DNA from: Gonapodya sp. JEL0774
Taxonomy: Eukaryota
Assembly: GCA_027604505.1 (NCBI GenBank)
Contig: JADIIX010000020.1
Location: 186,001-218,896 of the forward strand
Length of the DNA: 32,896 bases
Direction of reading: 5' to 3'
Shown: piece by piece, positions 790 to 25,074 of the stretch
Layout: every line of letters begins with the position of its first letter
Position numbering within the stretch: the first letter of the stretch is position 1
Translations under genes and position numbers: made by a program
The notes under the pieces: generated by a model
The model's database searches: none
What the model was told of the DNA's origin: nothing
The model's input: only the letters and a program-made list of their open reading frames with translations

Positions 790-3700
790 TTAACTCTTTG
801 CCGCAGGTGTGACTGGATGAAAGTTATTGTCAGAAATGCGTACACCGTATGGGAAAGAAGTCAGACAGTGCTCACCCTCAAACTCCACCAAAATCTCGTC
901 AGCTGCAACACTTGCGCCTTGTGATACGTTGACCTTCGCAATTTTTCCAGCCCTGGGCGCCCTCAACACGTTCTGCATCTTCATCGCCTCGACAATGGCG
1001 ATTTCCGATCCTTCCGCCACATTGTCGCCCGGCTTAACACTCAGTGAGATGACAGTACCAGGCATGGGAGCCAAAACAACGCGAGACGTGTCAAGCTTAG
1101 GCTTCTCCTTCATGTACTGGGTGGCAGTAAACTGGGCGGGGGTGTAAGTGTTGACGTTGAACTGGTGACGGAAACACACGGCTCAACGATTGCGTTCCTT
1201 GATGCAACCACAACAACGATTGTATGCTCACTAAAGTTCCGTGGTGGATCATGTTGAACCCAACGGGCAGGGGCTCTGAATATTGGACGACATAGCTCGA
1301 CCTAGCGCCGGTATCCTGTCCACCTTGCAACCGCACATTTATGAGGCTAGATTCGAGCTTCCAATCGGCATCCACAACAACTTCGGTCTTGTCGTCAATG
1401 ATGATCTAATGAAGAGAGCATTCCAGGGTAGGCATGGGTGACAGAGACCTTCTGAAATCGCGAGCGCGCTCACCTTGTACTCCTTGCCAGACCTCTCAAT
1501 AGCGAGTTTGAAGCTTTTCTTCTCCATTGTTTTGTTCCCCACGACTGCGTACATCACCCAACTCTGCGTCTCTTCGTGGAATTTGCTGACGTTTGCTTCC
1601 AGCCACGAACGGTCCCTCTGGTCCCTTCGGGCGTATGCGTACCCAGTCGCAGCAAGGAGCTCAACCGTAGACGCGGTGGTGAGCTTGTGACCACGGAAGC
1701 CCTGTGGATATTTCTCCGGCAAGTATTTAGTAGAGATCTTTCCTGCGCGGTAATCAGCTTCGGCTACGACCTCGCGAAGAAGTGGGATGTTGTGTGTGAC
1801 ACCTATTCGCAAGTTTCAACAAACATTTCCACACTTAACCAAACTTCGAAAAGCCATCACTAGAACTCACCCTTGATCACATAGGAGTCCAGCGCCTTCT
1901 CCATCAACTCCAAGGATTCCTTCCTGTCTTTGCCGTGCGTAATCAACTTACAGATCATTGGATCGTAGTACATGCTGATTTCGCTCCCTTCCCTGATACC
2001 GGAATCACAGCGCACAACGGGAGGAATGTCCCCCGTCGCCTCATAGCCCTCTGGCAGCTTCGGTTCCTGGTAGTGATTGAGGCGACCAATGGAAGGCAGG
2101 AAACGGACAGGGTCCTCCGCATACACACGAGATTCAGTGGCCCATCCAATGATCTTGATGTCTTCTTGTTTGATTGGGATATGATGCCCTGCTGCCGCAA
2201 GAATCATGAGTTCGACTAGATCGAGACCGGTAATTTGTTCGGTAATGGGGTGCTCGCTGAGGTGGCAAGAACAATAGTCAATTAGTGCCGAATGTCAGCC
2301 ACTCACAGTGAACACGTCTTTGTGGGGTAGGTAACTCACACTTGCAACCTCGTGTTCATCTCCAGGAAGTAGAAATTGCGATGCGCATCACAAAGCATCT
2401 CCACAGTCCCCGCCGAGTAGTATCCGACGTTTTTCGCCAGCGCCACAGCTTGCTCACCCATCTTGCGACGAGTCTCTGGGTCAATGTGCGTGGATGGTGC
2501 TTCTTCGATGACCTTTTGGTTTCGGCGCTGGATAGAGCATTCACGCTCTGGAAGATAGAGCTAGGAAAGCGAGGGTTGGGGGGGAAGTCAAAGACTTGAA
2601 CCCCTCAAAAACCAATCTACTCCTAAACTCGAACTCACAATATTGCCGTGCTTGTCCCCGATCAACTGAATCTCAATGTGCCTTGGATCCTCAATAAACT
2701 TCTCCACCAACAACCTGTCGTCACCGAATGATGACTTGGCCTCCGACGAGGACAACCGGAAGGCCTCCCTAGCCTCCTCGTCGTTCCAGGCGATACGCAT
2801 GCCCTTGCCTCCTCCGCCAGCGGAAGCTTTCACCATGACGGGGTAACCAATTTCACGGGCTGTTGATAAGAGTTAAGAGGATTGTTTACTGTGTCAGCGT
2901 CCATAGTTGATAACATATTGCGTCAAAAGTCGCCAGTTGATTGTACTACGCCCAAAAGTCTTCAGCGCCGTGTGTTCTGGACATCGAAACAGCCTCACCC
3001 ACAACTGTCACCGTTGAAACTCACCAATCTCTACCGCGTGTTCTGCGTCCTTGACCACACCATCGAATCCGGGAATACAGCTGACACCAGCCTGACGCGC
3101 GATAATCTTGGATTGAATTTTATCACCCATAGCGAACATGGCGGACGTGTTGGGGCCAATGAACGCAACTCCGGCCTCGTCGAGGGCCTTGACAAACTGA
3201 CTGTTTTCGGAGAGGAAACCGTAGCCTGGGAGAGATGATGAGTGAAACTGGTGAGAGTTCGTTCTATGACAGCTCCTCCGAGTCTCGAAGATCAATCGCC
3301 CTTCTGGCAAACCCACTGCACTGCTATTGACTCACCCGGGTGCACTGCTTGCGCCCCCGTCTCCTTACAAGCCCGAATAATGTTATCAATAACCAAGTAG
3401 CTCTGGTTGGTGGGCGCAGGTCCAATCAAGACAGCCTCATCAGCCTCTTGGACGTGAAGAGCGTTCGCGTCAGCCTCCGAGTAGACTGCCACAGTTTTGA
3501 TCCCCATTTTGCGGGCGGTGCGGATGACACGGCAGGCAATTTCTCCACGGTTGGCGATGAGGATCTTGTCAAAGGTCTTGTTTACATTGATTTGGAGGGG
3601 GGGAGGGGCGAGAGGTTTGGACAGGCAGCATCAGGTTTTGGTGAAGAGGATCCGAAATGAATGGAAAACAAATGGAATGAGAAGAATGAAGATTAAAAAC

Positions 3701-4243
3701 TGTACAAATTATATAATTGAGTCGAGTGAATTAGAAACATCGGGGACCATTCCTGTAACTCAAGAGGTTCCCAACCGGGGATGTGGGGATGTGGGGTTTC
3801 TTCCCACAAGTCTGTTCAGTCGGCCCCAAGAGAGTCCCAAAGGAATCTCTAGTATATGTGTCTCGGAACAAATAAATCATTCCGATATGGTCCACCCGCC
3901 AACCCCACGATATGGTGATAAGGCAAGTACCGGACAGGAGTGGCGGAAGGCGTTGCTCCACCACAACGTCGTCTGCTGATGAATCACTCACCTTCGGGTA
4001 GGTCTTTTGTGGAGTCTGTGTGGTGGCATACTGCCTTGTCTGCGACTGAGGGATGGGAGCCACAGCAGACGAGTTGCGGACCTTTGTTGGTTGGGACCGG
4101 ACTGTGCGGGATTGCAGAGGTGTCGCGGTGACCGAGACCGCGGATAGCGCGCGAGAGGCAACACGGGTAGCGGGAATCGCTGCTGTAGCAACTGAAGCCG
4201 AGGTAGCGGCCCGGGAAACAGTGATTGAGGAGAGCGATGCCAT
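790..4243 (-). CDS. PCCA: Propionyl-CoA carboxylase alpha subunit (biotin carboxylase + biotin carrier), mitochondrial precursor, ~9 introns
   Basis: ATG 4243 begins an Ala/Ser/Arg-rich presequence. Motifs [78 protein letters not shown] and biotinylation site EAMKMQN (PCC-type). GT..AG introns join the ORF fragments; last intron 875-813 gives C-terminus EFEVTPAAKS, stop 790-792. Confidence 0.93.
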
Positions 4244-4841
4244 TGGGAGGAGAGTGATCAACTTCCAGGGAGGGATGAAACAAGTACGAAAGTCAAGGGG
4301 TGTTAGAACGCGGAAAAGAAAACACAAGTCGCAAATTCGCAATCGGTTGATAGCTCACGTTCAGGTTTCGGAATTGAGAAAAAATGACGTTAGGGACTCG
4401 CGATGACAGATGTTCGACGGGAAGCAGGAGCCACCGAGTACGAGCACGCGGGACGATTGAAAAATGTTGGACTGAAAGTTGGATCGAGTTCACGGAACTG
4501 GTGGGAATTTCACACGGGAATGTGGAGAAAATGAAGTTTTGATTGAAGATTTCAGCGTGTCGGAATGAGGCGAGGGAGTTGCCGATGACAAATGGACGCT
4601 ATGACTCCATCCGAACTCCCGAAAATAAACCTGACGTGATTCCACGCCATTACGCCGTGCTATCTGTAAAGCGGATTTTGATACTTCGCTACTCTGACAA
4701 CTGTGCGAGCTATTTGCTTTTACCTGCCTCTCGCGCTCTCGTGTCTCAAACTCCCATCGGCATCCGACTCCTCCCAATCCTGTGGTTTTCGATCCCTTCC
4801 CACACCCTCAGCATTGTGAAGTATCACAATCCTCACTGCTA
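4244..4841. promoter_or_regulatory. Putative bidirectional promoter region between PCCA and PCCB
   Basis: 598 bp between divergent start codons; pyrimidine-rich tracts precede each ATG on its own strand. No specific motif identified. Confidence 0.55.
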
Positions 4842-7510
4842 ATGGCTTCTTCCCTTCCTTCAATCGTTCGGTCGGCTGCTGCGGCTGCTCGCCCAATGAT
4901 CGCCGCGACAGCTTTGAGGTCCTCTGCCCGAACTTCCCTATCTGCTGTTCGACGTATGGCGGTGGCAGCCACTCAAGGAAAAGTTAGTTGCTCTTATTTC
5001 TCCTTTTTGGAGCGTTTCGTTCGGAATCGAGCTCGCTTTGTATTGCATTTCCTTACTTTGAACTGATCCAAACCCTCGGTCATCCACTAGGAACTCTCGG
5101 ATATTATCGAGGCCGAGAGGCAGGCCGCCCACATTGGAGGGGGTATCAAGAGAATCGAAGCACAGCACGCTCGGGTGAGTTTTTAATGGACTACCCAGAG
5201 GTTTGACTTAGGTCTGTCCCGGAAGGCATCAGAGACTCTCTTCTGACAATGGTGTAGACTCTCTTCTGGCAATGGTACACACTCATTTCTTATTCGTCGA
5301 GCCGTGGTCACTTCGGTATTGAATCTACTATGGACTGGGCATAGTGCCGTTAGGCAATCCTGATCACGTCAGCACGGAGAAGGGATGATGTGAAGGGCCG
5401 ACACTTCCATCCCATTGGAAACCGACGCGCTGACTTGCCCTTCCGTATTACTTATTTCTGACTTCTCAAATACTCCCTCTCCATTCTAACCTCGTAACTC
5501 CAGGGCAAACTAACCGCCCGCGAACGTCTAGAGCTCCTTCTCGACCCTGGCTCCTTCCGCGAATTTGACCAGTTCGTGGTCCACCAATGTGTCGATTTCG
5601 GAATGGATAAAAACAAAATTACCGGTGATGGTGTGGTCACGGGTTACGGGACCATCTCTGGACGGTTGGTGTACGTGTTTTCGCAAGACTTCACCGTCTA
5701 CGGAGGGTCGTTGTCGAAGATGCACGCCCAGAAGATTTGCAAGGTGAGTCATTTTCATAAGATGGCGTGGTGCACCGTTGGGTTCTGGACGGGGGATGAG
5801 GAATCTGCGTCTGGGAAAGGTGACGCAAGGATTCTCTCAAATGCGTCATCATAGAGATGTGATTCTAATCCCTTTCTCACGTACTTCATACCCTTTGAAT
5901 TTCACGTGAAAATTCAGGTCATGGACAAAGCCATGCTCGTCGGCGCACCGGTGATTGGCCTCAACGACTCAGGTGGTGCCCGTATTCAAGAGGGTGTAGA
6001 CTCTCTTGGAGGATATGCCGATATTTTCCAGGTGGGTTGAAACTTGGAGGCGTTTGTGGGGCAAAGAGCACGTCTGGACAGAATCTATACCATAACGTCG
6101 TTTTATTTTGTTCACCAAATCATGCACACGTACCCCATTTTGAAATTTACTAGCGCAACGTGATGGCCTCCGGTGTTGTCCCTCAAATCTCCCTCATCAT
6201 GGGACCCTGCGCCGGCGGTGCTGTCTACAGTCCTGCCCTCACTGATTTCACCCTCATGGTCCGGGACTCCTCGTACCTGTTCGTCACGGGACCCGAGGTT
6301 GTCAAAGCAGTCACAAATGAGACAGTAACACAGGAAGAATTGGGTGGTGCAAAGGCGCACACATCGAAGAGTGGTGTAGCGCATTTGGCTTTTGACAATG
6401 ATGTGGAAGCGTTGAACAAGTGAGTCCTTGTACGCACGGGACGTCCCCTCACGGCCTGCAATGCACTGACGTATCATGTCCTGAAGACTACGTGAATTCA
6501 TTGATTTTCTCCCCCTCTCAAACCGCGAGGAGCCCCCAGTCCGTGTGACGGAAGATAGTCCGCTGAGGGAGGACCCCGTATTGGATGAGATCGTACCTGT
6601 GGATCCAACAAAGGCTTATGACATGAAGTATGTCGTGGAGAGGGTGAGTATATCAGATGTGAAATGAGACCTCAATAGTTACGGATCGGTAACTTTCCGG
6701 TTATTTCCAATACCCAGATTGTCGATGATGGTAACTTTTACGAAATAGCCCCCGATTTCGCCAAAAATATTATCATGGGTTTCGCGCGTATGAACGGCAA
6801 GACCGTTGGTATCGTTGGCAACCAGCCTCTCGTTTCCTCCGGTGTGTTGGACATCAACTCGTCTGTAAAGGCCGCTCGGTTCGTGCGGTTTCTGGACGCT
6901 TTCAACATCCCCATCATTACATTTGTGGACGTGCCTGGATTCCTTCCCGGTACAACTCAGGAACATGGAGGTATCATTAGACACGGCGCGAAACTGCTGT
7001 ATGCCTACGCGGAAGCAACTGTGCCCAAAATTACTGTTATTACCCGGAAGGCGTACGGAGGAGCCTACGATGTTATGGCGTCGAAGCACTTGAGGGGTGA
7101 TGTGAGTTGTTGCTAAATTACTCTGGAAGCTGAACATTTCATTGAGAGTGGACTCCCCCATCAATCAAGTCCAACTACGCATGGCCTGCCGCGGAAATCG
7201 CAGTCATGGGCGCCAAAGGCGCTGTGGAGATTATCTTCCGTGGTCTGGATGCCGAAGGCAGGCGTAAGTTATCTCTCTCAGTGATTCTGTGCTCTACGCA
7301 CTCCAAAATTCGCTTTGGATCTGCACAGGGAAAGCCGAATTAGACTATATCCGTACTTTTGCGAACCCTCTTCCGGCAGCCCAGCGCGGTTTTATTGACG
7401 ATGTGATCGAGCCCCGTTCAACGAGGAAGCGCATCATTGAGGATTTGGAGCAGCTTAAACACAAGAAGCTGACAAACCCGGCGAAGAAGCACGGAAACAT
7501 TCCTTTGTAG
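4842..7510 (+). CDS. PCCB: Propionyl-CoA carboxylase beta subunit (carboxyltransferase), mitochondrial precursor, 8 introns
   Basis: ATG 4842 with presequence [18 protein letters not shown]. Spliced motifs [72 protein letters not shown] and C-terminal KKHGNIPL. Confidence 0.95.
5233..5278 (+). repeat. 23-bp tandem duplication in PCCB intron 2
   Basis: agactctcttctgacaatggtgt / agactctcttctggcaatggtac, followed by a degenerate partial third copy. Confidence 0.85.
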
Positions 7511-7659: not shown

Positions 7660-9099
7660 CTATTGCGGAGGCGATCCTGAGCCTTCGGATTCATTCTTCT
7701 CCCACAATTCTTTGGCTTTGGGAAGTAAGAACCGCCCTCCCTCCCATTGCTTACGGAACCACGGTGCGTAATTGCGCCATATACTGGCTCGGGAAGCCAA
7801 GACTGTCAAGAGTGTATCCACGGCGTCGCCTGGTTTGAGGTCACTCGGTTTGCTGGGAAACTGGAGGCGACTTCGAAGATTCAAAAGTGCACGACGCTTT
7901 TGAGCAATTACACGAGCCGGAATTGTCGGCATGACATTCTGGAGGAAGTTCTCTAGATCGCTTGTTTCGATGTTGAAAACAGCGGAATCCCAGTCCACGT
8001 ATCCCTCGTACGGAAGAATCAAGTGGTCGGCCATTATGATAGGAATGCATCCTGCCATAACTGAGGTGAATAGCCTTCGTGTGTCATCAGTATCGCCACG
8101 AGGACAGGGACAGAACGTGGATGATAGCATCGAAGTAGTGAAGTTAGATCCAAAGCCACGATCGGTGCCCAGGACGATGGTGCCCGGTACAGTGCGAAGG
8201 GCCTCACGAATTCTATCGCGAACCGAGAGAGCGTAGCGACGTTGGCCCATCATTATGAACGCAAGGATGGGTCGATCACGGTCAGGATGGAGAAGGGGAT
8301 CATTGGATTGAAGTTCCGTGAACTCCTCGTGCAGCTCCGGGTACGGTACAACTATGTTCCGAGAGTAAGTGTGGTAATCGAAGGCGAAAGACTCTCGGGG
8401 TGTCTCATTTTCTTTAGATGGCGGTGTGTAAAGGTGATATGAGAGGGAGATTCCAGTTCCTGAAAGCCCGCCCCAAATATTTGTCCATACAAAATTGTAT
8501 CCATGTGTGGCTAGAAATTCTGGTGAGCTAGACACCGTTTCCACGAGTTGGGATTGCGTAAGATGTTTGCATTCGTTGTTCGGGGTCGGTGGCCACTGAT
8601 CCAATTCCGCCGCACACCAAAGCGTCTGACACGTGGGAACGATGACTAGGTCAGCCTCAGAGATGTTGCTTGTGTAGCTGGGGTGGTGTGAGAGGGTTTG
8701 AGCCCATATCCACTCAAACGCAAAATGGGAATCGAATCCATCCTTATCGAGAAGCACTGATTTGATCTTCGCGTTGTGCTCGGTGCGTGCAAGTGCGTCT
8801 TTGACTAGCTGTGATACATCCCAAACGAAGAATTTCACGTTTGGAAACTGCTGTGTTGCGAGGAATACCGGACTGGTCTTGAGCGCAGAAGCAGGTAATG
8901 AGGACGTGGTGGTGGCAGGACCGAACCACGAAGAGATCTTTGCTGTGAAGGTGACTATCGCAACTCCCATCAAGGCGAAAATCTGTGCTCGGTGTCGGGT
9001 CACCCCACTTGTTGGAGACGGCTGTACAGTTCTGTTCGTGAACTGCACAGTCAACGAATAGCACGGACAATACCGAAGACATACCTTTTGATACAGCAT
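7660..9099 (-). CDS. Exostosin-like (GT47) glycosyltransferase, type II membrane protein
   Basis: N-terminal hydrophobic anchor (IFALMGVAIVTFTA); EADLVIVP, IVVPY and the GT47 signature MLSSTFCPCPRGD..TRRLFTSVMAGCIPIIMAD..ILPYEGYVDW. Probable in-frame 63-nt intron 9084-9022 (gtatgt..tacag). Confidence 0.85.
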   Translation of the reverse strand: MLYQKVCLRYCPCYSLTVQFTNRTVQPSPTSGVTRHRAQIFALMGVAIVTFTAKISSWFGPATTTSSLPASALKTSPVFLATQQFPNVKFFVWDVSQLVKDALARTEHNAKIKSVLLDKDGFDSHFAFEWIWAQTLSHHPSYTSNISEADLVIVPTCQTLWCAAELDQWPPTPNNECKHLTQSQLVETVSSSPEFLATHGYNFVWTNIWGGLSGTGISLSYHLYTPPSKENETPRESFAFDYHTYSRNIVVPYPELHEEFTELQSNDPLLHPDRDRPILAFIMMGQRRYALSVRDRIREALRTVPGTIVLGTDRGFGSNFTTSMLSSTFCPCPRGDTDDTRRLFTSVMAGCIPIIMADHLILPYEGYVDWDSAVFNIETSDLENFLQNVMPTIPARVIAQKRRALLNLRSRLQFPSKPSDLKPGDAVDTLLTVLASRASIWRNYAPWFRKQWEGGRFLLPKAKELWEKNESEGSGSPPQ

Positions 9100-9388: not shown

Positions 9389-11929
9389 ATGCCACGCCAC
9401 CGCTATGACGATTCAATAATACCGCGCACTGAAGTCATGTCCAACGTTTCACGAGGACCTGTGTGGAAGGCTCGAGCATCGCGTCGTCGCCTCTTGGCAA
9501 TGCTCGCTATTACTCTCGGGGTTTACTTTGCATGTTTATGGTTGGGTTCGGAGGGTGAAAAGCGAGCCCATAATTTGTCTTCCCGCTCTGTGCAGAGTGA
9601 ACCAATGAACGATGACAGACCAGAAGGTCAGTCTCCGCTTGTGGCGGATGAACTCCACTTCTCCATCCCTCAAATTCACATACAGCCGCTCGGACAACAT
9701 GTGGATATCAAACCGGACCCACCTGTTAGAAGCGTTCCAGAAACGCGACCAGTTTACCGTGACCCGGTCACCGACCGATGGCCCATTTGTCCGTCGCAGC
9801 TCTCATTAGTAACTGCTTGCCAGAATCGCCACGATCATCTTCGCACCGCGCTAGCCTCGTGGATCCGCACTACGTCACCACTGAAGCAAATCGTCATTGT
9901 AGATTGGTCCTCGGAGCCCGGCCTGGAGTCTGTAGTGAAGGAAGTGCTTGAGGCTTGGGAGGATGACGTATACCAGGATCAAGACAAAATGAAATCGAAC
10001 AGTGACGAAGCACAAATGAAACAGTGTTGGGAACGTCCAAAGTTGATTCTGCTCCAAAGTTCGGGAGTCGAATCCGATATTCTGGCTGGTGAATCCAGCT
10101 TGGCCCTCCCTTGGATACTTTCCTGGGCCAACAATCTCGCAGCTTACGCTGCTACCATGCCCGAACTCTCGCGTGATGAATTCTCCCGTGGAATCGTCAT
10201 TTCCACAACCGATGCACACAAATACGAAGGGGGGGACCACACAATTCTCAAGCTTGATTGCGACGTAATTGTGCACCCAGATATAATCGACACTCTATCA
10301 GCGGCTGGTTGTCCATGTGGTAGAGCTCATGCTGATGGCCGAGTGTTGCCGCCAAACAGCTTTTTATCTGGCAACTGGCGAACAGCTTCTACTGAAAACG
10401 ACTTTCACCTCAATGGCGACTTTGCCGTTCGCGTCGCCGATTTTCACGCCATTCGTGGCTATGATGAAAGAATTCAGACCTACGGATGGGATGACAGTGA
10501 CCTGTACGAGCGACTGATGAGGTTGGGTGCTACTGGAGGCAACGGCACTAGGAAGGTTGATATTCCAGCTGGTTCTCTCACACACATCGCACATAGCGAT
10601 AGCGATCGAGTTTCTGGACGGGGTGGACGACGAAATTTGACGAACCTCGCGTTTGAGATCCTCCGTAATCGACTCTTGAGTGAGGCTGCCCCGGCATGGC
10701 CTGGGAACGTTACTGGATCTCGTTTCCGGCTGAGGATGGTGAATCCAGAAAAAGCATATTGTGGTGAAAATGGACGATGTTACGTGTTGCAGACTATTGG
10801 TGCCCAGTTGCTATCACACCCACCACCTCTCAAAGAGTTCGTATCAGAAGCCACACAACAGTCTATTGAGCTCACAGCCTATCGCACCACGCTTCGAAAG
10901 TATGGACTACTTGTGCCGCTTTCTTTCATGCAACTCCCGACATCCTATCTCTCTGCACTTCTCGGCACATTCACAATTGCTACACAAGGAATCACAGCCC
11001 TGGATGCTCGGCCCTCCTCTGTCCCTAAAGTTGCTGGCATTCTTACCATTGATGTGCAGCATGGATTATCAAATCGTCTTCGAGCTTTGGCGTCCGCAGC
11101 TTCAGTCGCGAAACAAGCGGGATGGCACCTGCGAGTTGTGTGGGTTCCGGATGCACACTGCGGTGCACGATTTGACGAGCTCTTCGAGGTCGGCGATCTA
11201 GATGTATGGAGCGAACCCATCGACCCCTTGGAGTGGAAAGCGGTTAAACCATTCACAAAACACTATTCGTACATGGACAGCGATGGCGGAAAAAGAGAAC
11301 CCATTGACACAATAACAGGGACTGACCCGGCCATTCGCCCGGCAACTTCTAAACAAACCTATCGTGTGCAGCAAGTGTATGTCAAAAGTGCATACCTTCT
11401 CAACCACACGGCGGGGATGAATTCAAAGGAAATAGGAAAGTTCCTCAGGTCTCTCACCCCCCGTCCATCCATCAGAAAAAAAATTGCGCTCATGAAAAAT
11501 AACTTCAGAGGCGAGTCGTATGTCGGAGTACACATACGAGCAACGCCACCGTTGGGAGAATTTGTTGGACTCCGGCCAGAAGATTACTCTGAAAAGGGTT
11601 GGAAGTCGCTGGAAACCGCGCGGCGTGCCACATCTGACGTGAACAAGTTTGTCTCTCGGCTTTCTGACAGTAAATCCGGTGTGTACTTATCGTCGGATTC
11701 ACCAATTGCGGTTCAAAAACTATTGGACAGACTGGGGCCAAGGGTTCGTTGGCTCGATAGTCAGGGCTGCATCAACCGATCAGCTCGATGTTTAGAGTAT
11801 GCAATAGCGGATCTCTGGGTGCTGGGTGGGGCGGAAAAACTTGTGGGGAGCTGGTGGTCTTCTTTCGGCGAGGTGGCTGGATATCTTGGCGGGATAGATG
11901 TTGATTATGTTGGTCGGACTGCTGACTGA
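9389..11929 (+). CDS. Intronless two-domain glycosyltransferase: TM anchor + GT-A/GT7C(galactosyltransferase)-like domain + fucosyltransferase-like GT-B domain (paralog 1)
   Basis: TM LLAMLAITLGVYFACLWL; IVIVDW, DxD motif KLDCD, GYDERIQTYGWDDSDLYERL (GT7C-like); GLSNRLRALASA, VGVHIR, YLSSD, DLWVLG..LVGSWWSSF (motifs of the GT11/GT23/O-FucT superfamily). Start may be 9389 or 9437. Confidence 0.8.
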   Translation: MPRHRYDDSIIPRTEVMSNVSRGPVWKARASRRRLLAMLAITLGVYFACLWLGSEGEKRAHNLSSRSVQSEPMNDDRPEGQSPLVADELHFSIPQIHIQPLGQHVDIKPDPPVRSVPETRPVYRDPVTDRWPICPSQLSLVTACQNRHDHLRTALASWIRTTSPLKQIVIVDWSSEPGLESVVKEVLEAWEDDVYQDQDKMKSNSDEAQMKQCWERPKLILLQSSGVESDILAGESSLALPWILSWANNLAAYAATMPELSRDEFSRGIVISTTDAHKYEGGDHTILKLDCDVIVHPDIIDTLSAAGCPCGRAHADGRVLPPNSFLSGNWRTASTENDFHLNGDFAVRVADFHAIRGYDERIQTYGWDDSDLYERLMRLGATGGNGTRKVDIPAGSLTHIAHSDSDRVSGRGGRRNLTNLAFEILRNRLLSEAAPAWPGNVTGSRFRLRMVNPEKAYCGENGRCYVLQTIGAQLLSHPPPLKEFVSEATQQSIELTAYRTTLRKYGLLVPLSFMQLPTSYLSALLGTFTIATQGITALDARPSSVPKVAGILTIDVQHGLSNRLRALASAASVAKQAGWHLRVVWVPDAHCGARFDELFEVGDLDVWSEPIDPLEWKAVKPFTKHYSYMDSDGGKREPIDTITGTDPAIRPATSKQTYRVQQVYVKSAYLLNHTAGMNSKEIGKFLRSLTPRPSIRKKIALMKNNFRGESYVGVHIRATPPLGEFVGLRPEDYSEKGWKSLETARRATSDVNKFVSRLSDSKSGVYLSSDSPIAVQKLLDRLGPRVRWLDSQGCINRSARCLEYAIADLWVLGGAEKLVGSWWSSFGEVAGYLGGIDVDYVGRTAD

Positions 11930-11996: not shown

Positions 11997-13499
11997 TCAT
12001 TCTATCGGCCGCTTTATCTCTTCAAGCAGGCGCAGTGCTATGCTACTAGCTTCAAGAGGATCTTTCGCTTCAAAAGCCTGCAGATTGTCTTGGTGACATT
12101 CCGGAGTTCCTTGGAACGCCGCCTCCCGGCACGAACGGATCTTCCCGTAAATGTTATCTATGTACACAACTGGCCGACCCAGCAATGTTGCGAAGATTGT
12201 TGCGTGCAGTCGATCTGTCACAACGATTCTGGCTTCCGACACGATTTGGTTGCCGAGAGCGATCCGCCGTTCCACCATATCCGTTTTATCGTAGCCTGGG
12301 TTCATCCACATGCGATCTGGGAGCTTCCAATCTCTATGTACGTATGTGATGTTCGCTTCGTCAAAAGCTCGCTCAACAATGTTCCAACCTCCGTGTTCAA
12401 CCCGAGTTTCGTGATCATTGCGCCCAAGAATAAGCACATCATAAATTGGAGAAGAGTCCGGGCTTATTGGCCCAACCATGAACGCCATATCAGGAACAAA
12501 CATTGAAGGTATCATCGGAAAATACTTTCTGGCGTTCTCAAGGGAGTCCTGAGAGCGCCAGGTCATTGTTAGTCTCTTCCTATGTCGCGACAAAACGACT
12601 GAATCATTTCTTGCGATATCCCAGTCGCGGTAATACATAGATTGGGGCATAATGATCATCGGAGTTTGTTGGAGAAGTTCAAGGAGAGAAAAGCGATTTT
12701 CATGCCAACTCCGCCATAGGTCTCCAAAGTTTCCGCCCCCTGGGAAAGAATATAGTGATATTCGACAGAGAGACGGCGATGGGGATGAGCCGCCAACGTG
12801 ATAGGTGAAATGTTCAAAGGTCATTCATGACAATATCGTTTTGAAAGCTATCGAAACTCCAAGTGTCTCACCATGAGCAAGAACAACAAACGAAGAGCCT
12901 CTGGAGCTCAGATTCTGCGCAAGTTGTTCCATATTGCAATCCAAACGGGCACCGTCGTGTGTGCACATTTCAACAATGTCTAGGCCCAAAATCCGGACCA
13001 ATCGCTGTTCGCCTCCCCTTCATAAACGAGTAGAGGTTACGAGGTGAGGTTGGCAAGAATGGGCATAAGGTCGGAGCGGAATTGTGGAACAGTTGGGCGG
13101 AAGAAGCACAAAGGTTAAGAACGTATCGACGCCCCCAAAAGCCATTTCACGTTATTACCAGATCCAGTTATCGCCAATGTTGTGATGTGCTGCCATGTCT
13201 GGCAAGAACACTTCTTTCGCATCCCCAAGTATTGATTTCATTCGTGCGATGATATCCCACCGCACCCGCTCGAGGCACTTCAATCGATTCCATTCACGAA
13301 GAGCTTTTGTCTCTAGTGCTGCCACTCTCCTGGCGCGGTGTTGTAGGGGGACGCCATTGTTCGGATATTGGGTGAAGTGCAGACGAGTCATCAGAGCGAG
13401 GACCACAATCCCAGAGAGAATAAGCATTTGCCATATCAAGCGAGCGCGACGCGGCGGAGAGCTTCTTTGAAGGAGATAAATATTCTCGTGATCCGACAT
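11997..13499 (-). CDS. Polysaccharide pyruvyltransferase (Pvg1/EpsI-like), type II membrane protein; exons 13499-13159, 13017-12872, 12739-11997
   Basis: Spliced product gives HHNIGDNWIWGGEQ, LAHGGGNFGDLW, MPQSMYY, PDMAFMVG, VVTDRLHATIFATLLG, DNIYGKI; N-terminal TM LIWQMLILSGIVVLALM. Confidence 0.9.
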
Positions 13500-14102: not shown

Positions 14103-17100
14103 ATGCGCTTTTCATCGGACATGAAGGGCACGCTCCGATTCCTGATCATTCTTTTGAGCTGGTACGCAGCTACAACAATCACAGCCGCGTCAACCAAGCA
14201 TGCACTGCGACTCTCTCCGCGTCCCATCGCCCTTACATTCTCTCAATTCGCTATTTCGACCCTTCTCACAATTGTCGTGTTCCCAGCAGCTCGCCGACCG
14301 ACGAAACCTTCCAGCGCCGAGGTTGTGATTGGAACGGAAGATGATACTTTCTTTCACCGTCACGGCAAGGGATGGTGTTTTGGCCTTACCAGAATCTGTC
14401 TCCACAAAGCGTCGTCTCTACCACTGGGTTTGCTCCATTTCACTGCCCAGATTTTTAACCTCGTTGCGATCAACCAAATGCCAGTATCTCTGGTTCAAGT
14501 TACAAAGGCAGGTGTTGTGCTTGTCGAAAGCCTGTTCGGGTTTGTAACCACTTGTATCAGTCGCTCGCTCCTTTGTACACAGTTGTCGCGTCCAGCATCT
14601 TTTTCTCCCTCTCATATCCCTCAAAAGTGTACCGTGCGTTAATACCGGTGGTCCTCGGTGTGATGATTACCTGTGTCGACGGGTTGGACGATGTTTCAAT
14701 TCTGGGAGTTCTTGCGGCCCAAACCAGCTGTGTGTTTTTCGTGGCTCAGAGTCTTTGGACAAAACATTTGCTGAAGACGACGGGGTCATGTTTGTACTCA
14801 GAGAACATCGTTTCGGATCAAGTCTCAATGGTTTTGTTCGATACTTTCGTTGTGGGGACAGTCGCTTCAATCCCTCTTCTGACGCTGGAAGTCAACATTT
14901 ACAAATGCGATGTCCATGAATTTTCGTGTTTTTGGGAGGATTTTCAAAATGTTCGGAGACTGGTCCTTCTCAATGGCATATCGTTCTTTGTGCAGACCAC
15001 TTTAATGAGCATCATTCTAGAAGTGTCGAGTCCGGTTACGTATTCAGTGGCCAACCTCTTCAAGCGCTTGATTGTGATTATTGGCTGCATTTTCTTGGCA
15101 AATGAGAGTCTCTCGTGGACCCAGATTGTTGGCACCACTATGACGCTTGTCGGATTACGACTTTACCAAGTGAGTCATGTGTGCCAAGAAGTTGTACATC
15201 ATCTTAAATCGTACGCTTTGATGAACAGCTTGCTGCTTGGGATGTCAACCGCACCGAAAATCCCCCAGTTAACATCGCAAATCAGATGGTCAAGAATTCT
15301 CACGATTTGGGTGGAATTTGTAAGCGGACATGGATAAAGCGGACGTTGATTTCTCTCGCCACCGTTGCATCGGTGGCGTTGATCCATCCATCCGCTCGAG
15401 TTCCCCACTTACCACGGTTTCTTCGGCACACCGAAGGCACGGCAAATCAATCTTTATTGGACAGAGAAATACCAAGTTGTAAAGCTCCGGTATCGATTGT
15501 AACGGCCTGCAAGAACCGCCCCGATACGTTCGGTCGGGCGTTTGCGTCTTGGCTCCGGACGGACCTCACTCCGAGGTCAGTGGTAGTTGTGGACTGGGGA
15601 TCAGATTTGCCATTACTCTCCATAGCGGAAAGAGAACTGGTTCAGTGGGCCACGGAGCAAGCGCGACAGAATGCTTCATATACGAGTGACCGTGCGTGCA
15701 TGCAGAGAATGGACGTGACAGTTGTGCGTGCTTACAATGAAAGCTCGGAAGACTTGAAATGGACATTAACATGGGCGTTCAACTTAGGGTTCCGGGTGGC
15801 TGAGGATAAAAGGTTGAGGCTGCAGATGAAATCTAGCGAGACACCCCTTGCTTTCATTTCCGAGGGTAGTCCAGAAGATGTCGTCCTTAAGCTTGACTGT
15901 GACAACGCCTTGCACCCACGCTTTAAAGCCTTCTTTCCCTATTCGAATGAGTCAATGCACAGTACTTGGTCTACTGATTTCGCGCTGCCAGCCAACAGCT
16001 ACTTCTCAGGAAACTGGCGAACTGCGCAGGACGAAAATGAACGTCATTTAAATGGAGCTTTCCTTGCACGAAGTTCTGATGTCCACCGCGTTGGCGGATT
16101 TGACGAACGCATCCAAACTTACGGGTGGGACGACAGCGACTTGTTTGAACGACTCTCGGGTTCGACTGATGTCACCGAGCTTTCATTCAATACTTTGCAT
16201 CAACTGAAGCAGATTGACTTCCCTAGATTTGCTATACAACATATTCAACACGTGCGGTCAGACAACCTTGGATCACGCCACGGAAACGTCATCAACGCCA
16301 ATGCAGGGTTCGAAACACTCAAGAACATGATTCTCATTAATATGGTCCCAAAATGGAACAATACTGCGGCAAAATGTCAATTCACACCAATGAATCCCGA
16401 TCTCATCCGGCGTTTTGATTCACCTGCAAGGACTGTTACATTGAGCACAATAACGACATCTCCGTTGCGTTGTCCGATGGCACTGGACCAAGAAGTTACG
16501 CGGAACCAATATCGTGATGTTCTCACTACTGCATTTCATCAAACATTTTCCAAATTCGGCCTTGCGCCTGATGTGTTCTTTGACGTAGATTCCGAGTACC
16601 CCGCGCGACTTCTCCAAACACTAACTATTGCAACCAGACATAAGTCTCCCATATCTCCACTCGAACCTAATCCACCGGTTGTGGGCATTTTAACAGTGGA
16701 CGTTCAGCGGGGGCTTGCAAACCGGCTACGCACTCTGGCATCCGCAGCGGCGGTTGCAAGTGCAGTTGGTTGGCACCTACGAGTGATTTGGGTTCCTGAT
16801 AACCACTGCAAGGCAAGGTTCCGAGATCTTTTTCAGACAGGAACCATGGATGTTTGGGATGAGCCCGTGAGCACAACAGAGTTCGAGGCAACTGCAGAGT
16901 TTACTGAAAAGTACTCATACATGGATCGCGATGGCGGTTTGAGGACCCCAATTGACACAGAAAGCAGAACAGATCCATCTCAGTCGCCTTTGAAAGACCA
17001 CCAAATACATCGGCTTCGTCATATTTACATTAAAGCCGGTACCTACCTAGCTCACCCCGCTGGCGGACCTGATATGGGACGTTATCGCTTCCACCTTCTC

Positions 17101-17571
17101 TCATTGGAGCCGGTCGACCGCATTCGAAACATGATCAGCGAGGTTCAAAGTCGGTTTGAACAACCTTATGTTGGGGTTCACATGAGGTCCCTACCCCCAG
17201 AAAATGAAGTGGCTGATTTGCAGAGCTCCGATTACAAGTCCGAAACTTGGAAAAAATTGAAAGAATTCCGCAGTATGGGCTCCAGTCTGGAAGCATTTGC
17301 ATCTCGCTTGCCTTACAATGGAAATACTACTGTGTACGTTTCGGCGGACAACCCTCAGTTGGCGAAGGATTTCGCCAACAGACTCGGCTCAAAAGTGATA
17401 TATTTGGTCAACAAAGGATGCGTGGATCGGTCGGTTGTTTGTGTGTCGTATGCTTTGGCAGATCTTTGGATATTGGGTGGGGCGCGAGCATTAATCGGGA
17501 GTCCATGGAGCTCCTTTTCAGAGGTGGCAATGTCTTTGGCTGGAGTCCCCATGGACTTAATTTCAAACTGA
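14103..17571 (+). CDS. Predicted fusion: TPT/SLC35E-family transporter + TM + GT7C-like + fucosyltransferase-like domains (paralog 2); exons 14103-14507, 14561-15169, 15229-17571 (~1118 aa)
   Basis: TPT motifs PIALTFSQF, PVSLVQVTK|SLAPLYTV, SPVTYSVANLFKRLIVI. Phase-0 intron 15170-15228 (gtgagt..aacag) continues without a stop (LAAWDVNRTENPPVNIANQ) into ORF 15286-17571, which shares many blocks with 9389-11929. Domain calls are firmer than the fusion itself. Confidence 0.75.
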
Positions 17572-17957
17572 CTCACACGGCAACGAGCCAACCGGCTTGA
17601 GACATATACTGTTCGCTTTATACATCACAATGATTATTGATTGACAGTTCTTTCAGATAGTATCAGATTTAAATGTAGTAGCACGATTCGCTGAAGAACA
17701 TCCTCACACGCTCCTCGCTCGGTATCATCTGACTGCGGTCTACCGTGCGATGATGAAGACAGAGGGTTTTCGCGGTGCTGGTTTTGGAGGAGATAGGTTT
17801 CCTGTGTGCCACCATGTGTTATTAGAGATTGGCCTGCAGTGCACCATTTGTACACACAAAGCTTCGCCCAAGCAACAACGGCTGATGACAGGAAAGTCTC
17901 AATATTTTCACTTATCAAGGCCTAGCCTTTCTTTTGGGTAATCTCCTAAACTCTCCA

Positions 17958-19610
17958 ATGAGCTTGTCAAGAACCAATGTTCGTTCAGGTTTTGGGGACC
18001 GATATCACTACAGGAGGAAGACTTCCGAACCACCGCCTGAGAATCATCACCGATCCGTGGGATCGCTCAGCCGCCATCTTAGCGTCTCCACTGAGCTGCA
18101 CTATCCGCGAGCTGCTGAAGGTCGCAATTCTCGTCCAAGTTCTCCCTCACCTCCCTACTCGACCCCATTTCATCCTCCTCCTGAGTCTACCATTGCACAC
18201 AATCCTTTTCGGGAACCTGTAGCTTCAGGTTTTTTGTGGACGTCTCCTGTCCCAATTATGCCTCCTGAGGTCTGGGAGCATGTTTTCTCCTTTTTGACTT
18301 TTCGAGCGCTGTTCGCCATCAGACTTGTTTCCAAGAAGTGGATGGCTCTTGCCGACATTGGAGTCAATGCCAAATGGAGACGTGAGGGATGGAGTCTTAT
18401 AGTTCGACTGGACACTTTTGGCAGGAAATCAGGAATGGGACACCTTCAACTCATCCACATTGATGGTGTGAGTGCTTGTATTTGTCAACCTTATATTGTT
18501 ATTATACCCTAATGTCTTATGATATAGGTTCGGTGGCATTTTCGGCCTAGTGCTCCATTTTTGCTCAACCACCTTCCAATCGGTACAACACTCAGATGGA
18601 GGTGTTGGATGGTTCCCGGACTCGCTGGCGCTTCCGCGCTGCCTGACGACTCTTCATTCCACGTTGCGGGTATGCCGAGTAGTACTGATTTGCGTGGTGG
18701 TCGCCAGGTTGCGGAATCCGATATACGTACGGCATTCAATGTTGAGGGTGGCGATGATGAACCAGCGTCTAGGCAAGGCGTGCTTTGGCGCTATCCCGCA
18801 GACACATCTTTTCTTTTCAAGATTAGAGTTGAGAAGTCATCAGAAGATTCTCGCGATGTTTTCGTGGATGGATTCGTGTGCACGCCCGGATTTCTGTTCA
18901 GTGGATCAACTGATGTCTCCCACTTTTTCGGACTAAACTCAACCGGCCTTCCACATGTCTCACGCTCTTCGTCGTCTGGGACATCCTCCCTTGCATCAAT
19001 CTCTGTCCCTTCTCCGACAAATCCCCATCGTTTCCAACAACCGCTCTATGACTCTGCTCTCGCCGACTTTGTTCTTCGTACTGCTGAAAGTACTATTGAG
19101 AGCCTCGACGCTTCGCTGTTTCTTTCTGATGATGCTGTTGCAGTTTGGCTTGCTCGGGCCGCTCTTGGAGATCGCGATGATGCTGCGCTACCTCATGTAA
19201 TTGCGCACTATGCTTGGACGAAAGAGCTCTTATCCGTGTCTCGTGATGTGCTGGGTCAACTCATGGAGCGGCATCGATTTCCCACGGACTGGGGTTGTGT
19301 AGCACCTGCACAAGCAGTGGCATCTCTATTGGAGCAAAACTACGGGTATAGACGGAGACTATACTCTTCCCTACGTCGGGTTCGATTTCTTGTAGATGGT
19401 CGAAGCTGGGTCGGAGATGATACTGACGGAAATTGCTCGAAGCGTGCCGAGTGCAAATACCCTGCGAGTACTATATCAATTGGGAGAGCACTGGTCGCGG
19501 ACATGAAACGGCGAAACGACGGTTTGCTGGCAATAAAGCCGTATTTGGCCGGTGAGCTTGCTCGCGTAGTGGAGGAGATTGTGAATAAGGTTGGGTCGAT
19601 GTCGGCTTAG
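17958..19610 (+). CDS. F-box protein; exons 17958-18467, 18528-19610
   Basis: F-box motif MPPEVWEHVFSFLTFRALFAIRLVSKKWMALA; phase-0 gtgagt..atag intron joins ORFs 17934-18512 and 18561-19610; C-terminal region unrecognised. Confidence 0.8.
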
Positions 19611-19917
19611 AGGGTTTACTTTTTATTGTGGTCAATTGTAGAACGTACTCCGCACAGAGGGCGCACTACGTATTGAATAGGGTTTATCCTATATTACATG
19701 CATCCATATTTAAGAATCCGGAGCAAAAGCTTACAGTAAGATCGATCAGTCCAGCTGGCACTCCTCTGTGTGAAGTCCATTAGTCCCAGAGACGTTGACC
19801 AGTAACACGACGAAATCGAAGCAGTTGTTTAATATATATGTAAGATGGATCGATGTTGACTCAAGATTTGCTACGAAATGTTTTAGATTGGCCGGGTTAA
19901 GTACATTCAGGTAGCGC

Positions 19918-21413
19918 CTAATGCCACCCGTCAAAGGTAACGTTGCAGTAATCTGCACTACCAAAATATCGTGCTGCTCTGCCGATATCAAATCTGTGTT
20001 TGTACTCCGCAATTGCTTCATCCCTCCCAAAGTGGTGATCCTCGAGTGCCATGGAATCCAAGAGGCAAAAGGTTCCATCTAGGAACATTTTGCGGAGTAC
20101 AGGGTACTCAGCACCTTCAACGTCCATTTTGACGATTCTAGGAAAAGTAAAATGAACTAAAGTGCACAAAATAACGGGTAAGAAAACCAGACGTGTGGAG
20201 AAACACTCACACATAATCGTCCGGGTGAACGTACTCGCGGATGAAAGAAGAGAAGTCGATCATGGCCACCTACGACCACAGAATTAGCACCGAAAGTCAC
20301 GTTGACCAGAGTATGTAGTCCCTCGCCCACTCCCACTCCCGCAACATTCGGTACTCACTTCAACTTTGGTGCGGTTTGCACCCAAACCACCCCAGTCCAC
20401 CACACTCGAGCCCCAGCTGGGAAGTCCTTCCTTTGAGCCATGATTAGGATCATCAACATAGAATGTTTGCGGTGTAAAATTGTCCGATACACATGCGTCA
20501 AAGTACTGGGTTATGGTCGATTGTTGTGAGTGAGAAGTTAGTACATAGTCGAATCACGGTGAAGTGCAATGCTTGCCGTCTCACAGTAAAGTCCAGCTTC
20601 TGAGCAGCATCCAGCAGCCGTTCGCGCAAGGCGGGATTGCATTCAAAACCAATTTTGACAAACTCTGCCGCATCTGGGTGGCCTTTCACGAAGCCATACA
20701 TTGTGTCTCCAACACTGAGAGAGCAATACGTCAGGGCAGAACAAAAAGTGCTTTCGACAAATCTTACTTCATCCCGAGGTCGAACCAGAACTTCTGAATG
20801 GGTGAAACACACCGGAGGTGAGCGGAGCAGTTTAGAAGGAACCCGCGAGTGCTTGTCAAAGCGTACTTCTGCTACGTGGCTTCACTACACAAAAATTACT
20901 TACTCTCGGTTTGCCATCCGCAGAAGGAATTGGTTCACCCTTGATTGTGCGCGTGGAGTCGTGAAGTGGAATAGGCCATGTCGGGCGGGGCTGCACCGGC
21001 TTTGTTGGCTCCACTACTTTGCTGAGCTCTGTCTGCTTGGGCCTTACAGCCGCGTCGAAGACATTCCAGCACTCCGCTTCGAGATTGGGGTGGGGTGCAC
21101 GAGGTATTAGATTTGGTGGTGTGGACTGGGCTTGGGCAAGGCATTCTAGCAGGACAGAGCGAGGTTTTTCAAGAGCGAGAACGATGGATTTGGTGGTGTT
21201 GGTGGTGGCGAGAGAAAGATTTGTGAAGTTGATATGCTGGTGAACAAAGAAGTTGAATTAGACCGATTCGTGGAAAGGAATAGAGCTTCCGATCGAGAAT
21301 AAACGTACCGATAGTGTTGCAATCACTATCACGGTCAACCCTACGCAGGTCAGAGTCTTCCACGAGAAGCGTAGGTTCGAGGAAGGACGGGAAGGAATGG
21401 GCGCGGGGGTCAT
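19918..21413 (-). CDS. FkbM/Methyltransf_21-like SAM-dependent methyltransferase with N-terminal type II membrane anchor and Pro-rich stem; multiple short exons
   Basis: Exon 1 21413-21309 (MTPAP..LTCVGLTVIVIATLS), exon 2 21236-20904. Then spliced KFWFDLGMNVGDT, GFECNP, IDFSSFIREYVHPDDY, IVKMDVEGAEYPVLRKM, ALEDH; stop 19918-19920. Exons 1-2 are not in the ORF track. Confidence 0.8.
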
Positions 21414-22165: not shown

Positions 22166-25074
22166 CTACGTTGTACCCCCCAATTTTCTCTCTTCCGATA
22201 ATCTTTCGAATCCCCTCTTAAACTCTTCGTGATATTTTACTAGCGATGACTTTATATCCGGCCTTCCAGCAAAAGCGCGACTGAGTAGCATTTTGACGTA
22301 GGAGAAGTCATCGTTGTTTGGATCGAGTAACGCCCCCCCGCCGCGGTAGAGCTCAAAGCTTCCTGGACCAACCTGCACATAGAAGAAAAATTACAAACTA
22401 GCTGACTGCTAGTCCAAGAGGATCTTTAAAGATACCCACATGTGCGGATATCATTCTGTAGAGAAAGTCATCCAGCTCAAACAGGTTGGTAGTGTTAAAA
22501 TCGCTCCTCCAATCATAACGTCGGTTTCTTCCGCTGGGTCCATTGATCATCTCTCCAGGCTTGATCAAGTTTGCGAGTTCCGGAATTGACGTTGTGTTGG
22601 GGTACCCTGGAGTGCGCGCGATACTCCTCGAAAGATACTTTTCGTCGTACTCAATTAGCGTGAGAAGCCTTTTGTCCTCTTCCGACTCGGGAAGTCGCCC
22701 AAAAGCTCTCTGGAAGCGCTCAGGTGTCAATGCCGTGACTAAGTTGGACGTAATAGATGTTAAGTCGTCCCCAACCGATAAGTCCAACACACTACGAAAC
22801 GTTCCAGCAGTTGCGGAGATATGGCACATCGAAAATCGGGGCGCTTTCATATCACTAACCCTGAGGCAGAGGTTAAAAGTCAGCGATCGGAGAATCCTGC
22901 TGTGAGAAACAGCGACGCGTACCGATCGACGTAGACCTTGTCCTTATTCGCTTTCAACCATTTCTCAATGTTCAGAAAATAATTGCAACCCAAAGGGAGA
23001 AAGTCCAAATCTCCCATAATCAGCCTATCATTTTCTGCGAATCGCGTCCAAGAGCCCGCAAATATTCTCTGCAACGCACTCTGCTGACCTGAGTCATGGA
23101 CAGCGAGTGGAACTTTGTGGAATTCGAATCCGCCGTTGGATAGGTATGATACTACCTCACGACCAGGCCAAGAAGTATTAAACGGTCGCAAGTCCTCCAC
23201 AAAGAGAAAAATGGGGACAATGTCACAGCGGCGCCACATCTGAATTGTCAAACCGCAAATAAGTCTCAGTAAGTTTGCGACCACAAGTCGACACAGGGAT
23301 AGCTTGCACTCGCCTCCGCCGCAAATGGTGCCCAGTATACAAACAAATCGATCATGTTCCCTGACAGAATCGCATAGGTCTGCCCTCCTACATCCTTGCT
23401 GGATGAACGCCCATCAAACAATGTATTGCCGGTGGATTGTGCTCCTCCCAACCCAATGATTGCTCCTGCCATGTAAATTCCCAAAAGCCCCGTCATTCCG
23501 ACAGACATGACTTTGAAGGGCAAGCCTTGCCTTGAGATTCTCATCATTGCCCAGGTTAGTTGACTTTCTTTTAATAGAGATACTGGCTTCGTTTCACTTG
23601 ATACCGACAAGTCGGATGCCGACGGTGTGGCATACAAAGCAATCGCAAAAGCCACGATGGCAACACTGAATGCGAACAAGAAGCTCACGTGAAGGCCAAA
23701 TAGGTAAGCCGAGCATACAACAGTAATAAGGATAGAAATTGAGGAGGCAAAGTTTTTCAGAATATTGTCTGTGGAATTCCAAAGTCATGATCTTAATCCA
23801 AGCGAGGAACCAGTGTGAAACCGTACGCGCAACCATTTACCAGCATACTTCATAATAACGGCCACAAGAAGACCTCCACACGCTTGGAGACAGATAGCAG
23901 CCCAGGTCCAGATAGTGTAACCTTGGAAAAATCCCCCTTCGGAGTAACTCTTGCCGTCGAACCACAGCACTCCAATAAAGAAACCAGGGACGACCGAGAA
24001 CAGCGAAAGCTGCACATTGCGTATCCATAAATCGGTGCTATTGGCTTTGATCACTTTCTCGAGATACACCCCAGCGAACCCAGATATGACGCTTGCGAGA
24101 CACACTTGAAGGAATCCAGCGATTGCTCTGGAGGTAAACGGACCTCCAACATCCGACCCAGCGTCACCACGTGTGGTTGAGCGTTGCGCAAGGAAGACTC
24201 CCAATGCAAGAATCATCAGTGAAATCCACCTGATAACTGATAAATGTCGTTTCAAGATAAAAACAGAGAACAGAGCAGTCGTGAGAAGCTACAAAATATA
24301 AAGAATGCACTCAAAACTTTTCAAAATGACAATGACAAAAGTTTGAACTTACCTTAAGCTGGTTGGTCATCTGATGCACAGCGGGACTCAGAGTTGTAAG
24401 CCCGGCGACCAAAAGGTTGCTCTGAACAAGATACAAAATTCCCGGTATCGTCAGCTCCATCCATTGGGATTCCACCCCAAACGCTTCGTTGTAGATCCTG
24501 GAAAGAATCCACCCGGGGCCAGCTGCATGCGGTTTAGCCCGTGACTGATTCACCGCACAGACGGCGATCGATATGAAAAGCTTTATCAGCTCAGAAGAGA
24601 CTAGTGTGTGAGAACAGTTGTTAAAAGAACAACTCACGTACACTAGCAACACTACTTACCGACCACTGTCGAGTTGAGAAACTTCGTCCCCGGTCGGGTC
24701 TGGGCGAATTTCAGTACAAGGGTGTGACAAGCGGCCTGCATCACTAGTGCGGCTAGTGAGAGCCATCTAATCCACCAGTTATGATTTCTGACAGGCTCTC
24801 CTGTGAGATCGTGAAAGGAATTGAACATAGGGGATGCAAGTGTTGCTTGACTAGATGAGATGGGATTGCCTTTGCAACGAGAGCGGGAACAATAACACGG
24901 GAGATGTAATGCAAGAATCAAAACAACAGATAGAAATTCCCTACCATGAATTCCTTTGAGCGCCCCATCGTCAGATTGGCCGAGCGATGTGACAGGTGGA
25001 ACGCTGACCATCGTCGAGCTCTTGAGCACTGCTGGCGATCGCGCAGACGCGATCTTGCCCGCGCTTTCAATCAT
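22166..25074 (-). CDS. Predicted fusion: SLC35A (UDP-galactose/UDP-GlcNAc-type) nucleotide-sugar transporter + TM + uncharacterised DxD-containing luminal domain; exons 25074-24945, 24800-24660, 24600-24353, 24288-23841, 23768-23314, 23239-22923, 22860-22440, 22372-22166 (~788 aa)
   Basis: SLC35A motifs STVVVSSELIK, IPGILYLVQSNL, QLK|LLTTALFS, SGFAGVYLEK, LWIRNVQL, GGLLVAVIMKYADNILKNFA. Within exon 23768-23314 the last transporter helix runs without a stop into a linker, a further TM and a soluble domain (YWAPFAAE|MWRR, IMGDLDFLPL, FSMCHISA). Confidence 0.8.

Follow-up and report, generated by a model that had tools for sequence, protein, structure and literature searches.

A probable in-frame fusion of a TPT-family transporter to a two-domain glycosyltransferase in a glycan-synthesis cluster of Gonapodya sp. 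JEL0774

The locus that we discuss lies in a window of 32,896 nt from the monoblepharid fungus Gonapodya sp. JEL0774 (assembly GCA_027604505.1, contig JADIIX010000020.1, positions 186,001 to 218,896 of the forward strand), and all positions given are those of the window. Between 7660 and 26581 there is a cluster of glycan-synthesis genes flanked by housekeeping genes, with as members a GT47 gene, two GT-A/GT-B paralogs, a gene for a Pvg1-like enzyme, a TPT gene, an SLC35A-type transporter gene and a gene for a type II DxD protein (Table 1). The transferase genes in it are intron-poor compared with the flanking genes. The Pvg1-like gene (three-exon model, about 409 aa) stands head-to-head with the TPT gene, across a gap of 603 bp. 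Outside the cluster a divergent pair at 790-7510 is presumably, from inspection by eye, that of the propionyl-CoA carboxylase alpha and beta subunits, and the sequence at about 32815-32896, cut by the window end, looks tRNA-like by eye although ARAGORN found no tRNA there.

An earlier note, made from these letters alone, proposed that the TPT transporter is fused in frame to one of the two-domain glycosyltransferases (GTs). The best database match of the GT open reading frame (ORF) is HDU93_003353 of the same organism, an NCBI model of 1335 aa (P0001 in our searches), and when mapped on the window it contains the intron 15170-15228 exactly as in that note. However it begins late, so that most of the transporter is missing, and it also takes in the downstream F-box gene (17958-19610, + strand), the C-terminal region of which is unassigned, at the cost of the last part of the GT-B domain. 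As an over-merging model it is thus to be taken as an agreeing prediction and not as proof of fusion. We reject its join to the F-box gene (17443-17921), as the GT-B domain would thereby lose its conserved C-terminus. With both introns of Table 1 removed the joined reading is 1118 aa with no internal stop, and it is likely that a single gene at the HDU93_003353 locus yields a spliced 1118-aa Golgi protein consisting of transporter, GT-A and GT-B domains.

Table 1. Features of the fusion locus and of the surrounding cluster
Feature	Position in window	Strand	Basis
HDU93_003353 exons	15005-15169, 15229-17442, 17922-18470, 18531-19607	+	NCBI model mapped on window
Transporter exon 1, N-terminal part of TPT domain	14103-14507	+	Pfam TPT model 2-99, E 1.1e-6
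Intron 1, probably GC-AG, 53 nt	14508-14560	+	frame; alignments to TIGR00817 and 5Y78
Transporter exon 2, rest of TPT domain through last helix	14561-15169	+	TIGR00817 100-292, E 6e-24; 5Y78 E 2.4e-5
Intron 2, 59 nt, GTGAGT...CAG, predicted transporter-GT join	15170-15228	+	splice statistics; also in P0001
Predicted cytosolic linker, 38 aa	15229-15342	+	stop-free; best score as GT-frame coding
Marginal type II membrane anchor	15343-15396	+	Kyte-Doolittle 1.46 over 19 aa
GT-A domain, GT2/GT7-like, with DxD and YGWDD motifs	15478-16497	+	fold and profile matches
GT-B fucosyltransferase-like domain and stop codon	16609-17571	+	fold matches; NodZ E 2.7e-12
Last exon in the rival reading as a separate transporter, with acceptor 15268 and stop at 15335-15337	15269-15337	+	worst score in transporter frame
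Pvg1-like pyruvyltransferase, type II anchor	11997-13499	-	PS_pyruv_trans E 3e-17; S. pombe Pvg1 5AX7 E 3.8e-27
Unfused two-domain GT paralog, own anchor	9389-11929	+	39% identity over 723 aa
GT47 exostosin-type glycosyltransferase, start approximate	7660-9099	-	Pfam E 2.8e-29
SLC35A-type nucleotide-sugar transporter	23266-25074	-	about 6 kb downstream of fusion gene
Weak FkbM-like methyltransferase match	about 19900-20260	-	in glycan cluster

Intron 1 of the transporter is most likely of the GC-AG type, as alignment to TIGR00817 and the structure 5Y78 sets in at the second or third residue of the exon that begins at 14561. Removing this intron leaves the frame intact and preserves the stretch aligned to TIGR00817 from position 100 and to 5Y78 from 118. 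The GT-donor alternative 14512-14582 is also in frame but has no G at +5, which is present in 29 of the 31 introns that we modelled in neighbouring genes. Our acceptor model prefers a wrong site for intron 1 (0.62 against 0.16), a point that also tells against the fusion. If the intron is read through the transporter frame stays open for 44 codons; the NCBI model missed it, and the annotated transporter N-terminus is shortened as a result.

Judged by sequence, the transporter is a complete member of the TPT family. Pfam TPT (PF03151) matches its two exons at model positions 2-99 and 95-290 with 28.7 and 91 bits (cut-off 30), and the top Atlas matches of exon 2 are also TPT (score 0.96). TIGR00817 gives 85 bits, far under its subfamily cut-off of 317.9, so that this is not a plastid TPT proper. 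There are nine hydropathy peaks in residues 1-338 (threshold 1.2) for the ten helices of the family, and the tenth helix has support from the alignment, in which it falls on the last helix of 5Y78. With Sly41/SLC35E and the plastid phosphate translocators (GsGPT, 5Y78) it has in common the Pfam family and, in the 5Y78 alignments, the positions matching GsGPT K204, K271, K362 and R363. It differs from GsGPT in having Gln at both the Y339 and the R266 position, Ala at that of E207, a short N-terminus and the predicted C-terminal fusion. This numbering was carried over by one hand-worked offset, with K204 counted three residues back across intron 1. Overall we take the transporter to be more like Sly41/SLC35E than the plastid translocators. 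In the GsGPT work (10.1101/206912) K204, K362 and R363 form the phosphate site, and Y339 and R266 are needed for exchange.

The two-domain nature of the transferase is borne out by fold for both domains. AlphaFold2 modelled the lumenal part from a 110-sequence alignment with a pLDDT of 87.7 and a pTM of 0.88. In the case of the N-terminal half the fold matches are heparosan and chondroitin synthases and GalNAc-T2 (Z 14-15), that to the heparosan/chondroitin synthases having Z 15 and rmsd 3.5 over 199-223 aligned residues. B4GalT1 was matched in a profile search, and Pfam Glyco_transf_7C gives E 1.4e-4 with 21.9 bits, below the cut-off of 23. With its DxD and WxxxDD-type motifs, near residues 559 and 636 of the fusion, and the modelled GT-A fold, this domain appears to be a GT2/GT7-like glycosyltransferase. 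The C-terminal half matches AtFUT1, NodZ, FUT8 and the POFUTs (Z 14-19), with Z 18.9 and rmsd 4.2 over 264 residues for AtFUT1, and Z 17.8 and rmsd 3.1 over 237 for NodZ, whose family profile also matches (E 2.7e-12). The aligned donor-site motifs of the fucosyltransferase superfamily are present, and the model places the GT-B domain in that superfamily (NodZ, FUT8, AtFUT1, POFUT), fucose transfer itself being predicted.

The case for the fusion depends on intron 2, and what the earlier note described at the junction is there: a phase-0 GTGAGT donor at 15170, a CAG ending at 15228, after which reading continues in the GT ORF frame, a linker of 19 stop-free codons (15229-15285), and a GT ORF of 761 aa from the ATG at 15286 to the stop at 17571. 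Without splicing the transporter frame stops at 15337, giving the 52-nt overlap (15286-15337) that had been noted. For comparison we have the 31 introns in nine neighbouring genes, modelled by frame continuity and so models rather than RNA; one transporter gene model in the set may hold a missed in-frame intron. GTGAGT opens 16 of them, a share biased upward because donors were picked from consensus-like candidates, and it occurs nowhere in 15,213 nt of modelled coding sequence or in a further 3,302 nt (about 18.5 kb in total). The modelled introns are 59-415 nt long, which puts intron 2 at the short end. AAG acceptors are used in 7 of the 31, which looks high for a fungus, and weak branch motifs are found in many.

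With regard to the acceptor, beyond 53 nt no YAG with a clear AG-free zone comes before 15228, and the first site of this kind is the one chosen in 21 of 25 comparable introns. In leave-one-out tests on 29 introns (two longer than 200 nt were omitted) the acceptor model put the true site on top 26 times; it gives 0.65 to 15228, 0.33 to 15268 and 0.02 to the rest. Site 15228 had been called the first plausible acceptor, and it is indeed favoured, but the CAG at 15268, which continues the transporter frame, is also a candidate. A codon-position Markov model scores 15229-15268 as GT-frame coding 6.7 bits better than as intron (a ratio of about 3.5), and for 15269-15337 puts the transporter frame 8.4 bits below the GT frame. 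The spliced C-terminal end aligns to 5Y78 with 30.5 bits and the unspliced end with 27.5, a weak comparison as the two queries differ in length. The other in-frame acceptors, 15285 and 15294, were rejected since the preceding AG is 17 and 9 nt upstream, while the minimum is 20 in the 30 introns with an upstream AG; 15285 does have a well-placed branch motif.

There are also observations against the fusion. Beyond the donor the transporter frame has no stop over 55 codons, matched by only two of the 31 introns, the body of intron 2 is 3.4 bits more coding-like than intronic, and the GT ORF retains its own ATG, which lies within the predicted linker, and its own anchor. A branch motif with good spacing was looked for in intron 2 and none was found. 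Start-codon context and composition of the 5' flank were uninformative on fusion or two genes, and the linker has no homology to the N-terminus of the paralog in the window (shuffle p 0.46 and 0.78). Combining by hand the splice-signal statistics and the agreeing, though over-merging, gene model, we consider a transporter-GT fusion through acceptor 15228 probable. That we do not put it higher is due in part to none of 165 relatives being fused. The in-frame fusion that had been proposed thus stands as the best-supported reading, with the splicing of the intron predicted and no fused relative found.

One alternative is a pair of overlapping genes, with acceptor 15268 giving a 360-aa transporter that ends at 15337, and with transcription of the GT initiated within the transporter gene and its translation at ATG 15286. 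The GT start context equals that of the unfused paralog, every relative examined is unfused, and the acceptor model does give 15268 substantial weight. The earlier note had argued that there is no room for a separate promoter, which is a weak argument given that tandem genes on the - strand of the window (26677/26581 and 25211/25074) have only 95 and 136 bp between them; a promoter near or within an upstream gene is therefore plausible, and these tight gaps suggest overlapping or read-through transcription. However two genes would require a 52-nt same-strand coding overlap where the three other measured tandem gaps in the window are positive, the rival last exon scores worst in its own frame, and a qualifying CAG would be skipped, as happens in 4 of the 25 introns, all of them longer ones. 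We regard this arrangement as quite unlikely. Improbable too is that intron 2 is unspliced or often retained, giving a 393-aa stand-alone transporter with the GT made from its own transcript, or a mixture of retained and fused forms. The long open frame and the slightly coding-like intron body would fit retention, but the absence of GTGAGT from modelled coding sequence is against it, and an open frame is seen across intron 1 of the gene too. The 150 nt past 15337 have an AT fraction of 0.49, against 0.51-0.59 in the 3' flanks of ten other ORFs, a difference partly forced since the stretch is GT coding. It is very improbable that two genes were brought together by misassembly, or by a recent deletion without function, through loss of a stop or spacer: although the arrangement is known from one assembly only and word-based searches gave the transporter no further relatives, neither ORF is disrupted, catalytic motifs are present, the fold is confidently predicted, and the splice signals at the junction are normal.

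In the fused protein the GT domains are predicted to face the lumen and the protein would be located in the Golgi. The earlier note had reasoned from a cytosolic transporter C-terminus followed by a type II anchor, which is consistent with Sly41, a probable nucleotide-sugar transporter of unknown substrate whose termini are described as cytosolic (PMC4865320). The topology is a prediction and the anchor is marginal, its hydropathy comparing with 1.6-2.1 for the anchors of neighbouring transferases, though the charge pattern is positive-inside, with four K/R on the N side and two on the C side.

A word search for the GT gave 22 proteins among 7995 scored candidates, with a TPT domain only in P0001, and a profile search gave 23,697 matches, of which the best 150 provided relatives. 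Pfam found no TPT domain in the 20 relatives scanned from the word search or in 30 long relatives from the best 150 of the profile search. More than two hydrophobic segments were found in none of the 165 other GT relatives among the matches listed, and a TPT-like match in none of 104 viral and metagenome loci. This is a soft test of the fusion, since prokaryotic, viral or unspliced calls seem to make up most of the set. The named eukaryotic relatives are from Quaeritorhiza, Hyaloraphidium, Rotaria, Porphyridium and Klebsormidium; those of the first two, and the paralog in the window, start with their own anchors. Searches with the transporter gave only P0001 among 1450 longer candidates, and nothing among 6 shorter candidates or 102 metagenome pattern matches.

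Proteins with the GT7C and NodZ-like pair are found in bacteria, giant viruses, algae, rotifers and chytrids, and share the two-domain core at 25-40% identity. They often bear extra modules, but none of the 165 carries a transporter. A pyruvyltransferase domain is fused to the GT module in 3 of 20 and 6 of 30 relatives scanned (9 of 50). The three Gonapodya GT paralogs form one clade with support 1.0 (FastTree, 52 sequences), its sister group being unsettled. The third of them is HDU93_001292, in the model of which no N-terminal anchor is present. As no fused relative was found and the Gonapodya paralogs form their own clade, the fusion, if real, would be lineage-specific, and probably arose after GT duplication.

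It had been suggested that the fused transporter imports substrate for its own transferase domains. We think this less likely, as the phosphate-binding Lys/Lys/Arg set is kept and the head-to-head neighbour encodes a Pvg1-like pyruvyltransferase, which together point to import of phosphoenolpyruvate (PEP). The joining of the GT module to a pyruvyltransferase domain in some relatives fits this as well. We assume that the Pet proteins of S. pombe are members of the TPT family. PMC4872226 and PMC6801904 describe S. pombe Pvg1p as a Golgi enzyme with PEP supplied by the Golgi transporters Pet1p and Pet2p, and table rows in PMC5990653 and PMC11118472 also cover this pathway. In common with the pyruvylated-galactose pathway of S. 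pombe, the Gonapodya cluster has a Pvg1 homolog and candidates for a Golgi PEP carrier and a beta-galactosyltransferase. What sets it apart is the clustering of its genes and the predicted fusion of the carrier to an unrelated GT of two domains. The transporter would bring PEP into the Golgi, the GT-A domain would add a beta-linked hexose or HexNAc, most likely galactose, the GT-B domain would use a GDP donor to add fucose or a similar sugar, and pyruvate capping of the product, with the PEP brought in, would be the work of the separate Pvg1-like enzyme. The fusion would then tie PEP supply to the enzyme making the acceptor, with no channelling of donor into its own active sites.

For the locus as a whole the best explanation, which we hold to be on balance a probable one, is a spliced 1118-aa fusion with lumenal GTs and a transporter likely to import PEP for the neighbouring pyruvyltransferase. 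The cargo taken by itself is less certain: given the fusion, PEP or a similar phosphate ester on the one hand and everything else on the other seem evenly balanced. The positions of Y339 and R266, both needed for GsGPT exchange, are Gln and that of E207 is Ala, which tells against PEP, and a nucleotide sugar has some claim as cargo; another cargo, or an inactive transporter, is unlikely. That the fusion is made and carries a nucleotide sugar (UDP-Gal-like or GDP-Fuc-like) to its own transferases, a rival to the mechanism only, seems to us rather unlikely overall. The clan of TPT and SLC35 includes nucleotide-sugar transporters, and transporters and transferases do form Golgi complexes (PMC6453868), but the retained phosphate set, the need of the neighbour for PEP and the separate SLC35A-type transporter downstream all weigh on the other side.

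On the preferred PEP reading, the simplest view of the cluster is that it makes a galactosylated, fucosylated and pyruvate-capped glycan, with the fused carrier supplying PEP. The full proposal, of a chytrid pyruvylation cluster in which a PEP importer is covalently fused to a bifunctional galactosyl/fucosyl transferase, which makes the acceptor and stands one step before the enzyme that receives the PEP, is tentative and more doubtful than not. One review lists eukaryotic glycan pyruvylation in fission yeast, algae, a sponge and a sea hare, chytrids not being on its list.

The earlier note knew of no characterised protein with this architecture. None has come to light that is characterised, but a gene with a TPT domain and a glycosyltransferase is in print, ostta19g00600 of Ostreococcus (PMC5082852). 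There too the surroundings are a cluster of genes for sugar modification, one for an FkbM methyltransferase being close by. The gene differs in GT family, in having one GT named against two folds here, and in being from a green alga and not a chytrid; the likeness is one of description, not of sequence or domain order. Mammalian SLC35A2/A3 with MGAT form Golgi transporter-transferase assemblies (PMC6453868) and share the physical coupling, though there it is non-covalent, the family is SLC35A and the donors are known. Our literature search, largely of open-access papers, gave no description of the Gonapodya locus or of a TPT, GT-A and GT-B combination. The general TPT-glycosyltransferase architecture thus already has a published example, and the version with two GT folds is a variant, probably real, in one genome.

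Channelling of substrate between Golgi transporters and transferases has so far been studied with non-covalent complexes; a natural fusion would offer a test, since its halves can be separated and joined again. Should the cargo be PEP, an orphan TPT/SLC35E-type carrier would be linked to glycan pyruvylation and assigned a substrate, and this would point to pyruvate-capped, fucosylated glycans in zoosporic fungi. The value is limited in that the fusion is a sequence prediction from one assembly and its architecture has a published example.

The anchored DxD-motif protein of the cluster (26581-25211, - strand, about 408 aa) is homologous to a C-terminal third domain that is fused to the GT module in four relatives, two of them from Quaeritorhiza, while here it is a separate gene; its main exon has no Pfam or PDB sequence match. 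A second fusion, of this gene to the SLC35A-type transporter, was considered and rejected, because the gene ends in a stop at 25211 and 136 bp separate this from the ATG that follows. Five viral contigs (L018, L024, L015, L022 and L020) have GT47-like matches near or inside the region matching the GT, and L024 also matches the DxD domain, so that these contigs echo parts of the Gonapodya cluster.
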